Positions 1,700-6,852 of a DNA stretch of 6,888 bases are shown here, piece after piece. The stretch is taken from assembly GCA_005191425.1 (NCBI GenBank), contig SUPR01000141.1, forward strand, positions 1-6,888, given 5' to 3'. Source of the stretch: Candidatus Helarchaeota ASGARD archaeon Hel_GB_B. Its GTDB lineage: Archaea > Asgardarchaeota > Lokiarchaeia > Helarchaeales > HEL-GB-B. The position numbers and the translations under genes were made by a program. A model generated the notes under the pieces. The model worked only from the letters and a program-made list of their open reading frames with translations, was not told where the DNA came from and ran no database searches. Position 1 is the first letter of the stretch. The number at the start of each line of letters is the position of its first letter.

Positions 1700-3013
1700 A
1701 TGAAAATTAAAATTATTTTTTTGGTATTATTAGTAGCTTTTATTTCTGGATGTAAAAAAGGATTAGTAAAAAGTAATACACCAGAGAAGGAAGCAAGTGT
1801 TGTTAATTTTTCGGATTATATTTTACAAAAAGAAGAAATTCCAGAAAGATTTGTTTTGTTTCCAATTAGTGATTTTTTAAAAAAACAAGGTATTGAGTCA
1901 AATCCAGGTAATTTTACAGATTATAACATTTTAGAAAGTAGATATTTCGGAATAAATATTAAAAGTATTGAAAATATTTATTTTCAAAGTTTATCACGTA
2001 AAAAAATAAATAATCCCAAGATAGAAGATGCTGGTATTGATGTGATGGTTATAAAATTTAATTCCTCGAGTGATATGGAGGCGAATAAGAGTATGATTAA
2101 AAAATCTCAATGTGAGAATAACTGTTATGGTTTAAGCAAGAATAATATCGTTGTTTTAATTGATAGCAATTATAAAGAATTTACAGGGCATTATACTAAA
2201 TATAAGGAAAGAATGGGTCTAGAAGAATTTTATAATACTTTAAAGGCTAAGAATTTAGAAGGGGCTGAAAAGTTTATATCTAAAAAAATAGAAAAAGAAG
2301 TAGAAGAAAATAAAAAAGATTATAATTTAAATAAAGATATTGATTGCTATGAATATCGAGAGGGGCTATCACAAAATTCTTGTTTTGGATATAGCGCAAA
2401 ATTAAATAATGACAAGTCTCTTTGTCGGTATATCAATTCCGAAATAGGTAGAAATATATGTTATCAAAAATTTTATTCAAATAATATTTTAAATTGTAAT
2501 TTAGAATCGTTAATTGTCGCAAAGGATAATTGTTATTATGGCAGTACAATAGGGAAAATGATAAATTTTTGTGATAAAATCAATGATAATAAATTAAGGG
2601 ATAAATGTTATTTTGATTTAGCAATAAAGGGTGGTGATCAGACTTTCTGCGAGGATATTAACGATAGAGATCGAAAAACGATTTGTCTTGAAAATGCCGA
2701 TTGTAATAAGCATACAGATCGTATGAAAAAAATCAATTGTTTTAGCTCTAAGGGACTTTTAACTTTAGATGTATCTTATTGCAAGTATGTAGGTGATGAT
2801 GTATCAAGCCAGGCAGTATGTTATGCTACAATAGCAGAGCTTAGTTTAAACCCAGAATTGTGTGCTAATACTTCTGATTCTGATATGTGCTATTTAATAA
2901 TAGCACCTAAATTTTATGGAAGTGAAAAAAACATTTGCCAAAAAATTAACGATAAAACAAAATTGCAATATTGTTTAGATAAAATTGAAAGATCCAAAAA
3001 AGATGGCTCGTAA
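1700..3013 (+). CDS. Putative lipoprotein with C-terminal array of nine Cys-pair repeats (437 aa)
   Basis: Signal peptide ending FISG-C18 (lipobox). Residues 216-425 hold 18 Cys in a pattern dominated by C-x11-C(Y/F)-x11/13-C. Confidence 0.8.
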   Translation: MKIKIIFLVLLVAFISGCKKGLVKSNTPEKEASVVNFSDYILQKEEIPERFVLFPISDFLKKQGIESNPGNFTDYNILESRYFGINIKSIENIYFQSLSRKKINNPKIEDAGIDVMVIKFNSSSDMEANKSMIKKSQCENNCYGLSKNNIVVLIDSNYKEFTGHYTKYKERMGLEEFYNTLKAKNLEGAEKFISKKIEKEVEENKKDYNLNKDIDCYEYREGLSQNSCFGYSAKLNNDKSLCRYINSEIGRNICYQKFYSNNILNCNLESLIVAKDNCYYGSTIGKMINFCDKINDNKLRDKCYFDLAIKGGDQTFCEDINDRDRKTICLENADCNKHTDRMKKINCFSSKGLLTLDVSYCKYVGDDVSSQAVCYATIAELSLNPELCANTSDSDMCYLIIAPKFYGSEKNICQKINDKTKLQYCLDKIERSKKDGS

Positions 3014-3050: not shown

Positions 3051-3494
3051 ATGAATAAAAAAAGATTTGGGATTATAGCTTCGGTGTACTTGGTTTTAAC
3101 TCAAGATAATAAAACTCTTTTACTTTTGCGGAAAAACACGGGATTTGAAGATGGGAATTATGGTTTGGTTGCTGGGCACGTTGAGGATAATGAGACCTTA
3201 AAGGAGGCGATGATTCGAGAAGCGAAAGAAGAGGCGGGAATTGATATTAAAGTTGATAATTTAGAATTGCGAAATGTTTTAAATAGACATGAAGTAAGCA
3301 ATGAAAGAGTTGATTTCTTTTTTAGTGTTAATAAATGGGAGGGTGAAATTATTAATAATGAGCCGGAAAAATGTGGTGGATTAGAATGGTTTGATATGGG
3401 CGTTTTACCAGAGAATGTAATTGGATATATTTGGCAGGCCTTGGAGGATGTTAAAAATAAAAGGTTTTATCGGGAGATTGTGGTGGAAAAATAA
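3051..3494 (+). CDS. Nudix hydrolase (147 aa from the probable start at 3051)
   Basis: Canonical Nudix box GHVEDNETLKEAMIREAKEEAGI (GX5EX7REUXEEXGU) and C-terminal NNEPEKC..LEWF...LP motif. The track start at 2985 overlaps the upstream gene and adds a low-complexity N-terminus; ATG 3051 is in frame and more plausible. Confidence 0.92.
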   Translation: MNKKRFGIIASVYLVLTQDNKTLLLLRKNTGFEDGNYGLVAGHVEDNETLKEAMIREAKEEAGIDIKVDNLELRNVLNRHEVSNERVDFFFSVNKWEGEIINNEPEKCGGLEWFDMGVLPENVIGYIWQALEDVKNKRFYREIVVEK

Positions 3495-3602: not shown

Positions 3603-4211
3603 CTACAATTCTCCAACCGTAATTTTCCTAATATCTTTATTTGTAATTCCAAGTCCGAGGTCTATTAAAAGATGGAATGCTTCATTTGGTGTTTTTAGAG
3701 GTATGGCGAGTCTGCTTTCAGGATGGATATAATAGTATTCATCTTTTTCGTCTGTATTTAATAGAAATCTTCCGGCTAATTCCTCGGGGAATTTTTTTTC
3801 AAAATATATGTAGTCCACAATTTCCTCAAGGGGCATCTTTTTACTCAGTTTCTTTATAGTTAGCATTGCATCTCTTGGTTTTCCAAGATAATATCTTTTT
3901 GTGTCAATGGGCGAAACATACCAGGCAGCACCATCAGCCTCAATCTGTAAAAGAATTTTTCCTTTAAGTTTTTCTGCTAGATTGATATCTTTAGTTCCAC
4001 TTGTTAATTCTTTTTCTCTTCTGATAGTATTTTTAACATGATTACTCCTTATTTTTGCCATTTCCAGAGTGGAATTCATCAAAAATGTGGTCATTTTTGT
4101 TTCATAATTGATATTGTAAATCGTGCTGCTTAGAATGATATAGGCCACTAAAAACAAACCTAAAAGAATTATTTTAGTAAGATGTTTGTGTTTGCCGCGA
4201 TTTTCCAGCAT
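3603..4211 (-). CDS. Membrane-anchored protein with two ~41-aa internal repeats (LxGxxLL...xY(V/I)xP...P.(D/E)A) (202 aa)
   Basis: N-terminal hydrophobic helix (about aa 14-31). L82-L122 and L145-L185 align ungapped (LKGKILLQIEADGAAWYVSP / LAGRFLLNTDEKDEYYYIHP); ends LGLGITNKDIRKI. I recognise this motif from Patescibacteria (Falkowbacteria-like) surface proteins. Confidence 0.8.
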   Translation of the reverse strand: MLENRGKHKHLTKIILLGLFLVAYIILSSTIYNINYETKMTTFLMNSTLEMAKIRSNHVKNTIRREKELTSGTKDINLAEKLKGKILLQIEADGAAWYVSPIDTKRYYLGKPRDAMLTIKKLSKKMPLEEIVDYIYFEKKFPEELAGRFLLNTDEKDEYYYIHPESRLAIPLKTPNEAFHLLIDLGLGITNKDIRKITVGEL

Positions 4212-4244
4212 ATATTTTATTTAAGAGCTCATTGTCTTCTTTAT

Positions 4245-4253
4245 ATTATAGCA
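4245..4253 (-). promoter_or_regulatory. Extended -10 promoter (TGcTATAAT) for the 202-aa gene
   Basis: Perfect TGnTATAAT 33 nt upstream of ATG 4211. Confidence 0.6.
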
Positions 4254-4300
4254 TATTTTTTTGTTTTTCTGTTTTTTATTAATAAGTTGGTGGAATTAAC

Positions 4301-4326
4301 AAAAAAGTCCCTGATGGGACTTTTTT
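4301..4326. terminator. Intrinsic terminator-like hairpin lying between divergent genes
   Basis: AAAAAAGTCCC-TGAT-GGGACTTTTTT: 11-bp stem including the A/T tracts, 4-nt loop. Confidence 0.7.
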
Positions 4327-4329
4327 ATA

Positions 4330-4361
4330 TGCGGAACCTAGTGGACGATATTATAACTTTT
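4330..4361 (-). repeat. Degenerate tRNA-3'-end-like site B (putative att/recombination remnant)
   Basis: + strand TGCGGAACCTAGTGGACGATATTATAACTTTT; 21/32 ungapped identity to site C; starts TGCGG like the tRNA-Asp 3' end (6461-6465); 4344-4358 matches the T-arm block 6470-6484 at 10/15. Confidence 0.55.
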
Positions 4362-4398
4362 TTAAACAAAATCAGGAATATCATTATGTTCCCAAATT

Positions 4399-4407
4399 TG
4401 ATATAAT
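4399..4407 (+). promoter_or_regulatory. Extended -10 promoter (TGaTATAAT), leaderless configuration
   Basis: TGATATAAT followed by exactly 6 nt (GTAGAC) and then ATG 4414; no SD. Confidence 0.65.
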
Positions 4408-4413
4408 GTAGAC

Positions 4414-5538
4414 ATGGAAGAGGAAATTCAAAAATTAAATAAAAAAGATTATAAGAAAATAGTAATTATAATATTTTTAATTTTATTAATAATTATAGGA
4501 ATTAGTTTTAATAGTGTAATAAGGCAAAATTATAGCTATAAATCACAACTTAATTTTTTGTCAAAAACAAATGAAGAATTTAATAATGCTAATAAAAATA
4601 AAGGTCTTGAAATTGAAATCTGTAACTCTTTAATTAATGAAGATGCGAAGAAAAAATGTTATTTTGCATATGCAATAGAAAATAAAAATGCTGATACTTG
4701 TTTTGGAATGGTTGATTTAACTAAAAAATATAAAACCGGCGATAGTAGCACATATCTTTATCCAGAGAATATATGTGGCAAAGAACTGTTCCAAATAATG
4801 GCTAATGAAGAATTTTGTAAGCAAGTGGAAGAAATCGCTTCAAAAACTCCTATGATTATAGATAGTTGTTATCGCGAAATAATTCCTAAAACATATAAAA
4901 TTGGAAAAGGGACTGTATTAACAAATGAAATAAAAAAACTATTAGATAGTGGTGAACAAATAATAGAAATAAAATTATTATCGAATATTAAATATCCAAA
5001 ATATGTTCATAATAATCAAGTGGAAAAATTTTTTCAATTAGGAAATTTTCAATTTGCATTAATAAATAAAAATAATGGTTTAAAATATATATCGAAAGCA
5101 ACTGGTTTTTCTGGTGTTATATATAAAGAAAAAAATAATGAAGATTGGAAAATATTTTTTGAAATAATAGACAAAGATGATTCTGGTAATAACCCTATTT
5201 ATCTATGGGATGAAGGAAATGAAATTTATATATTGATGGTTCAATGTTGTGGAGCAGGAAGTGGGGAAGGAACGGCTAAAACAATAAAAAGTAATAACGG
5301 TGGAAAAAGCTGGAATATTGATAAATGCTTTTATCACTACACTGGTTATCACCAATATATTTCTGATGGAAGTTATTTGCCTAAAGATTGTATAAGTAAT
5401 GGCAAATGTAATGGATTTATGATTAAAGAGTATTATTATAATCCAAATATAATGAAATTTGAAAATAAAGTTTTTGATTATAAAACCGATGAAAATAAAT
5501 ATTATATAGTTGAGGAGTGTAGTGATATAGTGCTTTAA
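4414..5538 (+). CDS. Membrane-anchored Cys-rich surface protein (374 aa)
   Basis: N-terminal TM helix (about aa 16-33); six Cys at 70-152 including C-x11-CY-x12-C as in the 437-aa protein; C-terminal domain with CCGAGSGEG, an Asp-box-like SNNGGKSW and four further Cys. Confidence 0.8.
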   Translation: MEEEIQKLNKKDYKKIVIIIFLILLIIIGISFNSVIRQNYSYKSQLNFLSKTNEEFNNANKNKGLEIEICNSLINEDAKKKCYFAYAIENKNADTCFGMVDLTKKYKTGDSSTYLYPENICGKELFQIMANEEFCKQVEEIASKTPMIIDSCYREIIPKTYKIGKGTVLTNEIKKLLDSGEQIIEIKLLSNIKYPKYVHNNQVEKFFQLGNFQFALINKNNGLKYISKATGFSGVIYKEKNNEDWKIFFEIIDKDDSGNNPIYLWDEGNEIYILMVQCCGAGSGEGTAKTIKSNNGGKSWNIDKCFYHYTGYHQYISDGSYLPKDCISNGKCNGFMIKEYYYNPNIMKFENKVFDYKTDENKYYIVEECSDIVL

Positions 5539-5560
5539 ATATTTAATTAAATATTTATTT

Positions 5561-5586
5561 AAAAAACCGCCTTTCAGTGGTTTTTT
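5561..5586. terminator. Bidirectional intrinsic terminator between the convergent 374-aa and 240-aa genes
   Basis: AAAAAACCGC-CTTTCA-GTGGTTTTTT; stem with one G-T pair, A6/T6 tracts. Confidence 0.7.
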
Positions 5587-5603
5587 GTTGGAATGATGCT
5601 GTT

Positions 5604-5635
5604 TGCGGGAACTAATAGTCGCAACTCGAATTTTT
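5604..5635 (-). repeat. Degenerate tRNA-3'-end-like site C (putative att/recombination remnant)
   Basis: + strand TGCGGGAACTAATAGTCGCAACTCGAATTTTT; TTTGCGGGA (5602-5610) is identical to 6459-6467 at the tRNA 3' end; 5618-5632 matches the T-arm block 6470-6484 at 10/15; 21/32 to site B. Confidence 0.55.
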
Positions 5636-5641
5636 ATTAAG

Positions 5642-6364
5642 CTAAACAAGTGTTTTGCTATTCCGATATTTTGAATCAGAGAAATAGAGATAACACTCAA
5701 TCGCAAAAATTAAAAGTATTATTTCAATGCTTGTTTCAAATATTTCACCAACTCTCAAGATGTCTTGAGAGTTGGTGTTTATTAGAAAAATTTTATTGAC
5801 TATAGTATTTAATTCTCTGGACAATAGTAAGAGTGTTAGTATAAAAATACTCCCTATTGGAATTTTGAACTTAGAGGTGTATTTTTTTAAAAATGGAAAA
5901 ACCTTAATTAAAAGGGTAAAATAGACAAAATAAATTATAATTAAATATTTACCATAATCAAACAAGGCTCTATTTTTATTGTGAAATAAATTTAAATTAT
6001 GAATATTAAATTCTCTTTGGTAATTGTTTTCTATAAAATATTCTGGAGTGTTAAATTTGAATATCCATTGACCCCAACTTATTTCCTCAAAAAATAAAAA
6101 TAAAAGCGAAACACCAATAATTAAATAAAAAATATATTTTTTATTTTTCCAAAATATATATAAAAATATAATCGATCCCATAAGAGCTGATAATGCTCCG
6201 ATTGTTTCGTATATGCCTCCATCAGTTAAAAGAAATAAAACAAAACTGTCATTACCTGTTAGATGTAGAATAATAGGGATAATGAATAAAAAAGTAATAA
6301 AAAACAAAAGTAATATTTTATATTTAAAAGTATTTACATTTTTTAAAAATTTATTTATATACAT
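5642..6364 (-). CDS. Polytopic membrane protein of unknown function (about 6 TM helices, 240 aa)
   Basis: About six hydrophobic segments; motifs DGGIYE, FFEEISWGQWIF...PEYF..NNYQREFNIHN and GEIFE, which I recognise from an uncharacterised membrane-protein family. Confidence 0.8.
   Translation of the reverse strand: MYINKFLKNVNTFKYKILLLFFITFLFIIPIILHLTGNDSFVLFLLTDGGIYETIGALSALMGSIIFLYIFWKNKKYIFYLIIGVSLLFLFFEEISWGQWIFKFNTPEYFIENNYQREFNIHNLNLFHNKNRALFDYGKYLIIIYFVYFTLLIKVFPFLKKYTSKFKIPIGSIFILTLLLLSRELNTIVNKIFLINTNSQDILRVGEIFETSIEIILLIFAIECYLYFSDSKYRNSKTLV
5746..5777. repeat. Perfect 15-bp inverted repeat inside the 240-aa CDS
   Basis: CACCAACTCTCAAGA-TG-TCTTGAGAGTTGGTG. Confidence 0.9.
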
Positions 6365-6370
6365 ATTTTT

Positions 6371-6379
6371 ATTATACCA
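6371..6379 (-). promoter_or_regulatory. Extended -10 promoter (TGgTATAAT), leaderless configuration
   Basis: TGGTATAAT followed by exactly 6 nt (AAAAAT) and then ATG 6364; no SD. Confidence 0.65.
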
Positions 6380-6429
6380 AGAAAATGAAAAAAGTTAGAG
6401 TGTACAAAGGGAGCTAATAAAATTAACAA

Positions 6430-6457
6430 AAAAGTTGTCCAATATTGGACAACTTTT
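6430..6457 (-). terminator. Intrinsic terminator of tRNA-Asp
   Basis: Perfect 28-bp palindrome AAAAGTTGTCCAAT|ATTGGACAACTTTT a few nt downstream of the tRNA 3' end, reading into TTTTTTGTT on the minus strand. Confidence 0.8.
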
Positions 6458-6462
6458 ATTTG

Positions 6463-6537
6463 CGGGAGTGACGAGGCTCGAACTCGCGACCTCTTGCGTG
6501 ACAGGCAAGCGCTCTAACCAAACTGAGCTACACCCCC
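6463..6537 (-). tRNA. tRNA-Asp(GTC); CCA not encoded
   Basis: GGGGGTG TAGCTCAGTTTGGTTAGAGC G CTTGC-CT GTC AC-GCAAG AGGTC GCGAG-TTCGAGC-CTCGT CACTCCC G: 7-bp acceptor (one G-U), D, anticodon and T arms all pair; discriminator G; followed by CAA rather than CCA. Confidence 0.97.
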
Positions 6538-6568
6538 ACTTCGCTGAAGCTTCGTGGGGCAGTCCCCA
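6534..6568. repeat. GC-rich palindromic (REP-like) element overlapping the tRNA 5' end
   Basis: CCCCAC-TTCGCTGAAGCTTC-GTGGGG-CAGT-CCCCA: two overlapping hairpins share the GGGG tract; the CTTCGCTGAAGCTTCG core resembles dispersed palindromic repeats I recall from CPR genomes. Confidence 0.5.
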
Positions 6569-6731: not shown

Positions 6732-6738
6732 ACTTTTG

Positions 6739-6800
6739 TGAAGAGGATTCCGATGTTAAACATCGGTTTGACGAGCATTAATCATGCTCCCATCTCTTCA
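6739..6800 (-). ncRNA. Candidate three-way-junction small RNA (unassigned)
   Basis: P1 TGAAGAG/CTCTTCA (6739-6745 with 6794-6800), CCGATGT/ACATCGG (6750-6756 with 6760-6766), GAGCAT/ATGCTC (6773-6778 with 6784-6789); all Watson-Crick. Minus-strand TGtTATATT (6814-6806) lies 5 nt upstream of P1. Confidence 0.5.
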
Positions 6801-6852
6801 TCTTTAATATAACACTTAGTTATTAAAACTAGATGAAAATAAAAATGTTTTT

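Follow-up and report, generated by a model that had tools for sequence, protein, structure and literature searches.

The 6,888-base contig SUPR01000141.1 (hereafter the window, and as a member of its assembly C49) carries a tRNA-Asp gene followed by a row of short genes that are separated by recurrent junction sites. On sequence comparison, this tRNA gene is probably an integration hot spot at which integrase-less one-gene units were inserted stepwise and site-specifically, and the window would cover the tRNA-proximal end of a small flexible island. Read in the direction of the tRNA (minus strand), the order is tRNA-Asp, terminator, the gene of a 240-amino-acid (aa) protein, site C, terminator, the inverted gene of a 374-aa protein, site B and terminator (Table 1). 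We found that the junction modules are homologous, that they are placed at every unit boundary, and that relatives differ in the genes held between the same modules. Close relatives are few in sequence collections, namely the metagenomic contigs L014 (with L177, from a sister run) and L181, to which we added one distant case, the Patescibacteria genome G200. L014 and L177 come from SRR29699992 and SRR29699991, L181 and L182 from SRR31636562 and SRR31636559.

In the proposed mechanism, tRNA-Asp would offer a docking site in its 3' part, which runs from the T-loop to the end of the gene, and short self-expressed units, each consisting of a terminator, a promoter, one gene and a junction site, would be inserted there one after another by site-specific recombination. 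Every new insertion would push older units away from the tRNA and leave a junction module, a tRNA-end-like core followed by a terminator, between the units. In the window, unit 1 would thus be the 240-aa gene ending in site C and unit 2 the inverted 374-aa gene ending in site B, while the 202-aa gene (P0003) would be the flank beyond the array. Because no unit carries a recombinase, the units would either be mobilised in trans or be fixed remnants.

Junction modules are homologous to the tRNA-Asp end and to each other

The initial annotation had described a repeated boundary unit, a tRNA-3'-like site plus terminator, and this unit proved to be real, on module-level and cross-genome comparisons instead of the identity counts originally offered for it. 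The module at the tRNA (A: tRNA end, terminator and flank) aligned with the B module over ~59 nt with a score of 48.5; the highest score among 40,000 random AT-rich windows of 70 nt was 39. Of 425 terminator-like sites taken from the metagenome-assembled genome (MAG) that contains the contig and from every other locus fetched, none but the L014 and L181 junction modules gave an equally high score. The exact 15-mer ACTTTTTTGTTAATT lies at the equivalent place directly behind the A and B hairpins. Site C was identical to site s1 of L181 at 36/44 positions (82%), with unrelated genes on either side, and the 18-base pattern GCGNCTATTAGN{0,1}TTCCN{0,1}GCA spanning C and s1 had 0 matches in 401 Patescibacteria genomes (~370 Mb) and 0 in viral contigs.

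In a nine-way alignment, B, C, L181 s1 and L014 u2 were seen to carry, in a common position, a 5-nt insertion (ACTAG / CTATT.G) that true tRNA-Asp ends lack. These four sites, which we named type II cores, keep the T-loop heptamer and the last 8-9 tRNA bases. Every relic ends at the T-loop, beyond which the upstream sequence is A-rich and not part of a tRNA, and GCTTAAYAAAA is a conserved non-tRNA motif just upstream of C and s1. L014 and L181 each contain two copies of the box ACTYACTCNAAYNTTT behind the core, in 3/4 cases together with a terminator; the four genes downstream of these copies are unrelated, and the box had 0 occurrences in 5.5 Mb of background. In the window, L014 and L181 alike, sites stand at every unit boundary in the orientation of the tRNA. 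These comparisons support the view that the junction modules at the boundaries share descent from the 3' end of tRNA-Asp and its terminator.

Gene content differs between the same junctions in relatives

The cross-relative comparison of the tRNA-Asp locus revealed gain, loss and replacement of genes exactly at the modules in L014 and L181. L014 starts inside the tRNA 3' end, its 22-base core differing by 1 base from the tRNA-Asp of the Patescibacteria genome L206, and continues with a terminator, a gene on the opposite strand for a 148-aa membrane protein, the tRNA end copied exactly over 23 nt (positions 10-32 = 756-778), a terminator, the box, a promoter and P0005. This last protein is a 58% homologue of the 240-aa protein of the window, and its flank is identical to the tRNA-proximal flank of the window at 50/68 positions. 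Compared with the window, L014 thus has one additional gene in a 746-bp insertion that lies exactly at the tRNA end and immediately ahead of the homologue of the first gene of the window. The 5' neighbour of the exact repeat is unrelated DNA. Behind P0005 follow a further degenerate core, a homologous terminator with compensatory changes, the same box and a gene for a Cys-rich protein.

L181 starts in tRNA-Asp, followed by terminator, box, a DUF6653 gene, s1 and terminator, and then by inverted ParE/Phd and RecQ genes, the relic s2 (GTTCAAAATCCGTTCCGC), the box, a dCMP deaminase gene and P0011, a 71% homologue of P0003. The tRNA-Asp gene and the P0003-type gene thus enclose different content in the window and in L181, and the window, L014 and L181 all have different genes between tRNA-Asp and the junction modules. 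In G200, which is unrelated, a 1.37-kb insert lies behind tRNA-Asp; its one gene, for a 293-aa protein, belongs to no known family, and an exact 21-nt repeat that starts at the T-loop closes the insert. The stretch repeated exactly in L014 (23 nt) and G200 (21 nt) is the same as core A of the window. Among 25 tRNA-Asp loci scored (of 30 fetched, with ~1.5 kb on each side; G200 lies outside this set), L203 and L196 had a candidate second tRNA-end copy downstream, and L185 and L186 gave two further tRNA-end matches that may be neighbouring tRNAs. Upstream of the P0003 homologues in L178, L183 and L184, the proximal promoter is kept and the B core and terminator are absent.

We considered whether the junctions could be decayed tandem copies of tRNA-Asp, the distal copies having lost their 5' parts and the genes between them having arrived by unrelated means. 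Duplicated gene ends would be homologous past the core, through terminator and flank, as A and B are. This origin is nevertheless decidedly improbable, since random decay would not produce relics that all stop at the T-loop with A-rich non-tRNA sequence upstream, since the insertion common to the relics is absent from tRNAs, and since the L014 repeat is exact even though its 5' neighbour is unrelated DNA.

Short phased repeats also lie near the insert ends. Four GTCTA(T/A)T repeats with 10-bp spacing occur at 640-680 of L014, near the end of the insert, and paired TGTGTCCA motifs occur at both insert ends of G200 (L215; ~4606-4626 and 5703-5722). They are candidate arm-type recombinase binding sites.

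Folding and conservation of the modules

RNA folding of the junction cores gave no structure signal: the folding energies were -3.9 kcal/mol for site C (z -0.5), -4.7 kcal/mol for L181 s1 (z -0.7) and -0.1 kcal/mol for site B (z +1.15). The modules are 74-82% conserved, compared with 68-75% for coding DNA, and were observed downstream of tRNA-Asp only. Conservation like that of coding DNA fits selection for a function, and we therefore weighed the explanation that core, terminator and box form a regulatory or RNA-processing module that punctuates expression and is copied between genes, with content changing by homologous recombination or deletion. Every module has a strong terminator with a promoter after it, and homology of the flanks after A and B would be expected if the whole module were the copied unit. 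We regard this explanation as unlikely all the same, given that the cores lack a significant fold, that arms of 45-100 nt are short for homologous recombination, that no module was encountered other than behind tRNA-Asp, and that the repeats of L014 and G200 are exact tRNA-end copies starting precisely at the T-loop, the signature of tRNA-targeting integration.

Evidence for and against stepwise integration at tRNA-Asp

The common T-loop start of the relics, the exact repeats in L014 and G200 and GCTTAAYAAAA upstream of C and s1 together make up the classical signature of tRNA-targeting integration and accretion, known also from the ssrA islands of Dehalococcoides (PMC3146451), from units of the type of cis-mobilizable elements (PMC5704250) and from tycheposon islands (bioRxiv 10.1101/2020.12.28.424599). 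What we infer is that recombination took place, in which direction and order, and that an enzyme carried it out. The homologous flanks after each core further suggest that units carry their own core and terminator, like cassettes excised core-to-core.

Several observations weigh against stepwise integration at the tRNA. A scan of the whole contig gave tRNA-end-like matches of the strength of B and C about as often as chance predicts; both sites are degenerate and, by similarity to the tRNA end alone, are no better than a few chance matches elsewhere on the contig. The idea that they are tRNA-3'-derived held in so far as the junction modules are homologous to the tRNA-Asp end and terminator, but the common 5-nt insertion means that they are not plain displaced tRNA ends. 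The homology of the A and B flanks is not predicted by one simple integration and needs units with their own core-plus-terminator copy. No recombinase family was found in any open reading frame (ORF) of the contig or of the 7.7 kb available; that the genome of G200 encodes a tyrosine recombinase and a large serine recombinase, one gene of each and both away from the insert, is no more than a lead. Homologues of the 202-aa and 240-aa proteins also occur in contexts without such sites (L011, L178, L183 and L184), and the comparative case rests on three short metagenomic contigs and one distant genome.

The initial annotation had itself leaned on similarity counts between the bare sites. The 21/32 ungapped identities between B and C were reproduced, but as evidence they are at chance level: shuffled sequences reached at least 21 of 32 with a probability of 0.14 and natural AT-matched windows with one of 0.15, 21 is likewise attained on the opposite strand, and the AT-matched controls proposed as a check place the similarity no higher than what two AT-rich spacers of those sizes give by chance. 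The stated 10/15 match of both sites to the T-arm block could not be reproduced without gaps, where the best of ten offsets gave 4/15 (B) and 6/15 (C); over the tRNA end, 11/32 positions of B and 14/32 of C were identical without gaps. TGCGG does open the plus-strand sites at 4330, 5604 and 6461, as had been described for B, C and the tRNA end. In gapped alignments weighted for composition and G+C, site C matched tRNA-Asp 3' ends with P ~0.0025 per 100 nt, and site B matched the tRNA-Asp end of the L014/L181 type with P 0.004, but that of the window's own tRNA with only P 0.08.

The chance-level identity of B and C, the P of 0.08 and the outcome of the contig scan are all in keeping with B and C being fortuitous G+C-rich words beside ordinary terminators in AT-rich spacers, in a row of ordinary chromosomal genes. 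We consider this very improbable in view of the A/B module alignment, which lies far beyond random and terminator controls, of the C/s1 pattern that is absent from ~370 Mb of Patescibacteria DNA, and of the recurrence of sites in tRNA orientation at every unit boundary of three genomes.

A possible system of gene capture

Going beyond stepwise integration, the modules could be live sites of integron-like gene capture in Patescibacteria, where a recombinase encoded elsewhere or on a helper moves one-gene units core-to-core; we put this forward tentatively and think it rather doubtful. Excised one-gene units would be re-inserted at the tRNA-Asp end, with the tRNA tail in the role of attI and the type II core (TTCG..TTGCGNCTATTAG.TTCCGCAA) in that of attC. 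If this reading were true, the high module conservation across genomes whose proteins are only 58-71% identical would reflect selection for recognition by the enzyme.

Patescibacteria have tiny genomes with few recognised mobile elements, and how they acquire surface and accessory genes is poorly understood. A tRNA docking site that takes up single self-expressed genes without an integrase of their own would be a very economical means of envelope variation, which is relevant to episymbionts and to escape from phages. Islands anchored at tRNA genes with partial-tRNA repeats are already well known. For Patescibacteria, a full-text literature search found no description of rows in which self-expressed one-gene units lacking an integrase share a conserved junction module. 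The window adds a small, partly worn case with direct comparative evidence of gain and replacement at the junctions, together with a junction motif that can be searched for.

Comparison with known islands and integrons

As in accretion islands, direct repeats of the tRNA 3' end lie in tRNA orientation (exact over 23 nt in L014 and 21 nt in G200, degenerate as B and C in the window), and the content between repeats differs while the tRNA and the distal P0003-type flank are kept (window and L181). The cis-mobilizable elements (CIMEs) of streptococci are integrase-less, att-flanked and accreted in tandem at tRNA 3' ends; they are decayed integrative and conjugative or integrative and mobilizable elements of several kb, and their att sites are plain target repeats (PMC5704250). 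The array resembles them in having units without integration genes that keep junction sites at a tRNA 3' end, with newer arrivals adjacent to the tRNA. It differs from them in its units of 0.6-3 kb with mostly a single gene, in the common junction module of 45-130 nt (core with 5-nt insertion, terminator and box), and in having no known helper element.

The ssrA islands of Dehalococcoides occur many in tandem, with a 20-bp repeat of the tmRNA 3' end at their bounds, insertion in the T-loop and a conserved non-target motif upstream of each repeat; they measure several kb or more (~7 kb of cargo amplified), in 16 of them the serine recombinase DsiB is part of a six-gene integration module, and some have no integration module (McMurdie et al. 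2011, PMC3146451). The array shares with them the tandem arrangement, the T-loop insertion and an upstream motif, here GCTTAAYAAAA before C and s1, whereas no six-gene integration module was seen in it. Tycheposon islands of Prochlorococcus lie by tRNA genes of a streamlined genome and contain scattered partial tRNAs from successive integrations as well as adaptive cargo, and the tycheposons themselves encode a tyrosine or large serine recombinase, often along with replication genes (bioRxiv 10.1101/2020.12.28.424599). The flexible tRNA-adjacent island with partial tRNAs is common to both cases; unlike tycheposons, the units described here have no recombinase or replication genes and only cargo of no known family.

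The term integron-like, used in the initial annotation, applies to the architecture only. Integrons, and clusters of attC sites lacking integron-integrases (CALINs), are like the window rows of short, single-gene units that are split by short recurrent sites and anchored at one docking site. A true integron or CALIN is nonetheless rejected, as there is no IntI or other tyrosine recombinase on the contig and no recombinase on the 7.7 kb, no attC-like hairpin or folded attC site, and, in place of promoterless cassettes in one orientation, units with their own promoters, one of them inverted, between sites derived from the tRNA end.

Origin of the contig

The window is the entire contig C49 of a MAG of 3.54 Mb with 28% G+C. 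None of the C49 proteins has a paralogue elsewhere in this MAG, and its other contigs have no proteins in common with C49 or with the relatives of C49. Searches with the 374-aa, 240-aa and PLD-like proteins, the tRNA-Asp gene and the C49 DNA found no match in up to 40 relatives of the MAG, including members of the same genus. Close homologues of the 202-aa protein P0003 occur in metagenomes only, and its remote homologues with names are mostly from Parcubacteria, Falkowbacteria and 'Patescibacteria group' bacteria. Because of the missing paralogues, the missing homologues in MAG relatives and the taxonomy of the P0003 homologues, we treated C49 as a mis-binned sequence of Patescibacteria type, that is, of an ultra-small bacterium. 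With the MAG not being the host, a motif scan across its genome would be meaningless. Across all 3.5 Mb of the MAG, ARAGORN finds just 8 tRNA genes.

A contig assembled independently from a different sample (L010, 7,454 bp; ERZ27227322) differs from C49 by 5 mismatches in 6,602 bases, so that C49 is not an assembly artefact. Three sequencing runs labelled hydrothermal vent metagenome contain merely 7-12% of the C49 words, and no habitat is claimed.

Layout, expression signals and cargo

The layout given in the initial annotation, with tRNA-Asp, three hairpins and the two genes at their places, was recovered, and all three hairpins are U-tailed (Table 1). Site C begins within the stop codon of the 240-aa gene.

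Table 1 Features of the tRNA-Asp array in the window, in tRNA direction
Feature	Position	Strand	Basis or remark
tRNA-Asp(GTC), intact, CCA not encoded	6462-6537	-	ARAGORN; Rfam tRNA, 67.8 bits
Core A, T-loop to tRNA 3' end plus two bases, TTCGAGCCTCGTCACTCCCGCAA	6460-6482	-	Repeated exactly or worn at the junctions of relatives
Terminator hairpin behind tRNA	6430-6457	-	-14.9 kcal/mol, z -5.5; terminator scan
Distal flank 15-mer ACTTTTTTGTTAATT behind tRNA terminator	6421-6435	-	Exact repeat at 4294-4308
Box-like motif ACACTCTAACTTTTTT of 240-aa gene, variant of the ACTYACTCNAAYNTTT box	6388-6403	-	Sequence comparison
Extended -10 TGGTATAAT of 240-aa gene	6371-6379	-	Ends 7 nt before ATG
Cargo gene 1, 240-aa multi-pass membrane protein P0002	5642-6364	-	ORF call; no Pfam family
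Junction site C, GCTTAATAAAAATTCGAGTTGCGACTATTAGTTCCCGCAAA	5602-5642	-	T-loop heptamer plus TTCCCGCAA, 5-nt insertion relative to tRNA
Bidirectional terminator common to the convergent 240-aa and 374-aa genes	5561-5586	both	-8.1/-10.6 kcal/mol, z -2.65/-2.75
Cargo gene 2, inverted, 374-aa protein P0001	4414-5538	+	ORF call
Extended -10 TGATATAAT of 374-aa gene	4399-4407	+	Ends 7 nt before ATG
Junction site B, ATCGTCCACTAGGTTCCGCA	4330-4349	-	= CGTCC + ACTAG + GTTCCGCA of the L014/L181-type tRNA-Asp end
Terminator hairpin behind B	4301-4326	-	-16.1/-14.6 kcal/mol, z -6.4
15-mer ACTTTTTTGTTAATT, second copy, behind B hairpin	4294-4308	-	Identical to 6421-6435
Distal flank, 202-aa gene P0003 (Patescibacteria-typical) with -10 TGCTATAAT at 4245-4253	3603-4253	-	71% homologue distal in L181

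Extended -10 boxes (TGnTATAAT) lie upstream of all three genes, those of the 240-aa, 374-aa and 202-aa proteins. At both cargo genes (4399-4413 and 6365-6379) a Shine-Dalgarno sequence is absent and the distance from the -10 box to the ATG is 7 nt, as is also the case in L014 and L181. Because the -10 boxes of the cargo genes end so close to the ATG, their mRNAs are likely to be leaderless. Envelope genes with their own promoters, as they had been called, is a fair description of both.

The cargo proteins had no significant Pfam family and no PHROG or PADLOC match (phage and defence). P0002 belongs to a family of widespread multi-pass membrane proteins with an invariant EE.SWGQ motif (EEISWGQ in the window) and no Pfam model; in genome and metagenome contigs, this family offers just 25-56% homologues from many phyla and no close loci. 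Taken as a whole, P0001 is unique. It possesses a membrane anchor at the N terminus and a Cys-rich stretch, and the domain at its C terminus (residues ~170-374) has ~190 remote relatives, some fused to SLH and Big_5 surface domains, and a BNR-like fold is a weak lead.

The Cys-rich motif C..I.D...K..CY...A is repeated in a 437-aa protein (1700-3013), in the N-terminal part of the 374-aa protein (4414-4800) and in a protein of L014 (1741-2716), and seems to represent a surface-protein repeat specific to the lineage. A perfect palindrome with a 14-bp stem (5746-5777), situated within the coding sequence of the 240-aa protein, is listed on the plus strand by the terminator scan; it is not conserved in the L014 homologue.

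Other structured and tRNA-like elements

In the NUDIX gene, TTCAAATCCCGTGTTTTTCCGCAA (3126-3149, minus strand) resembles the T-loop and 3' end of tRNA-Asp in tRNA orientation (P 0.0004 per 60 nt). We rejected it as a real relic of a tRNA end; with ~0.3 such matches expected across the contig, it is probably due to chance. About 200 nt upstream of the tRNA, positions 6738-6802 form a three-way-junction fold with a closing stem of 7-8 bp and two hairpins (-24.8 kcal/mol; z -5.2 and -4.1 for the minus and the plus strand, respectively). It had no Rfam match at E <= 1 and may represent a small RNA or a structured element of another kind. The 22-nt stretch immediately 5' of tRNA-Asp (CCCCACGAAGCTTCAGCGAAGT, 6538-6559, minus strand) recurs nearly unchanged directly 5' of tRNA-Val in L178 (3080-3116); it is able to pair with the first bases of the tRNA and looks like a shared tRNA leader element.

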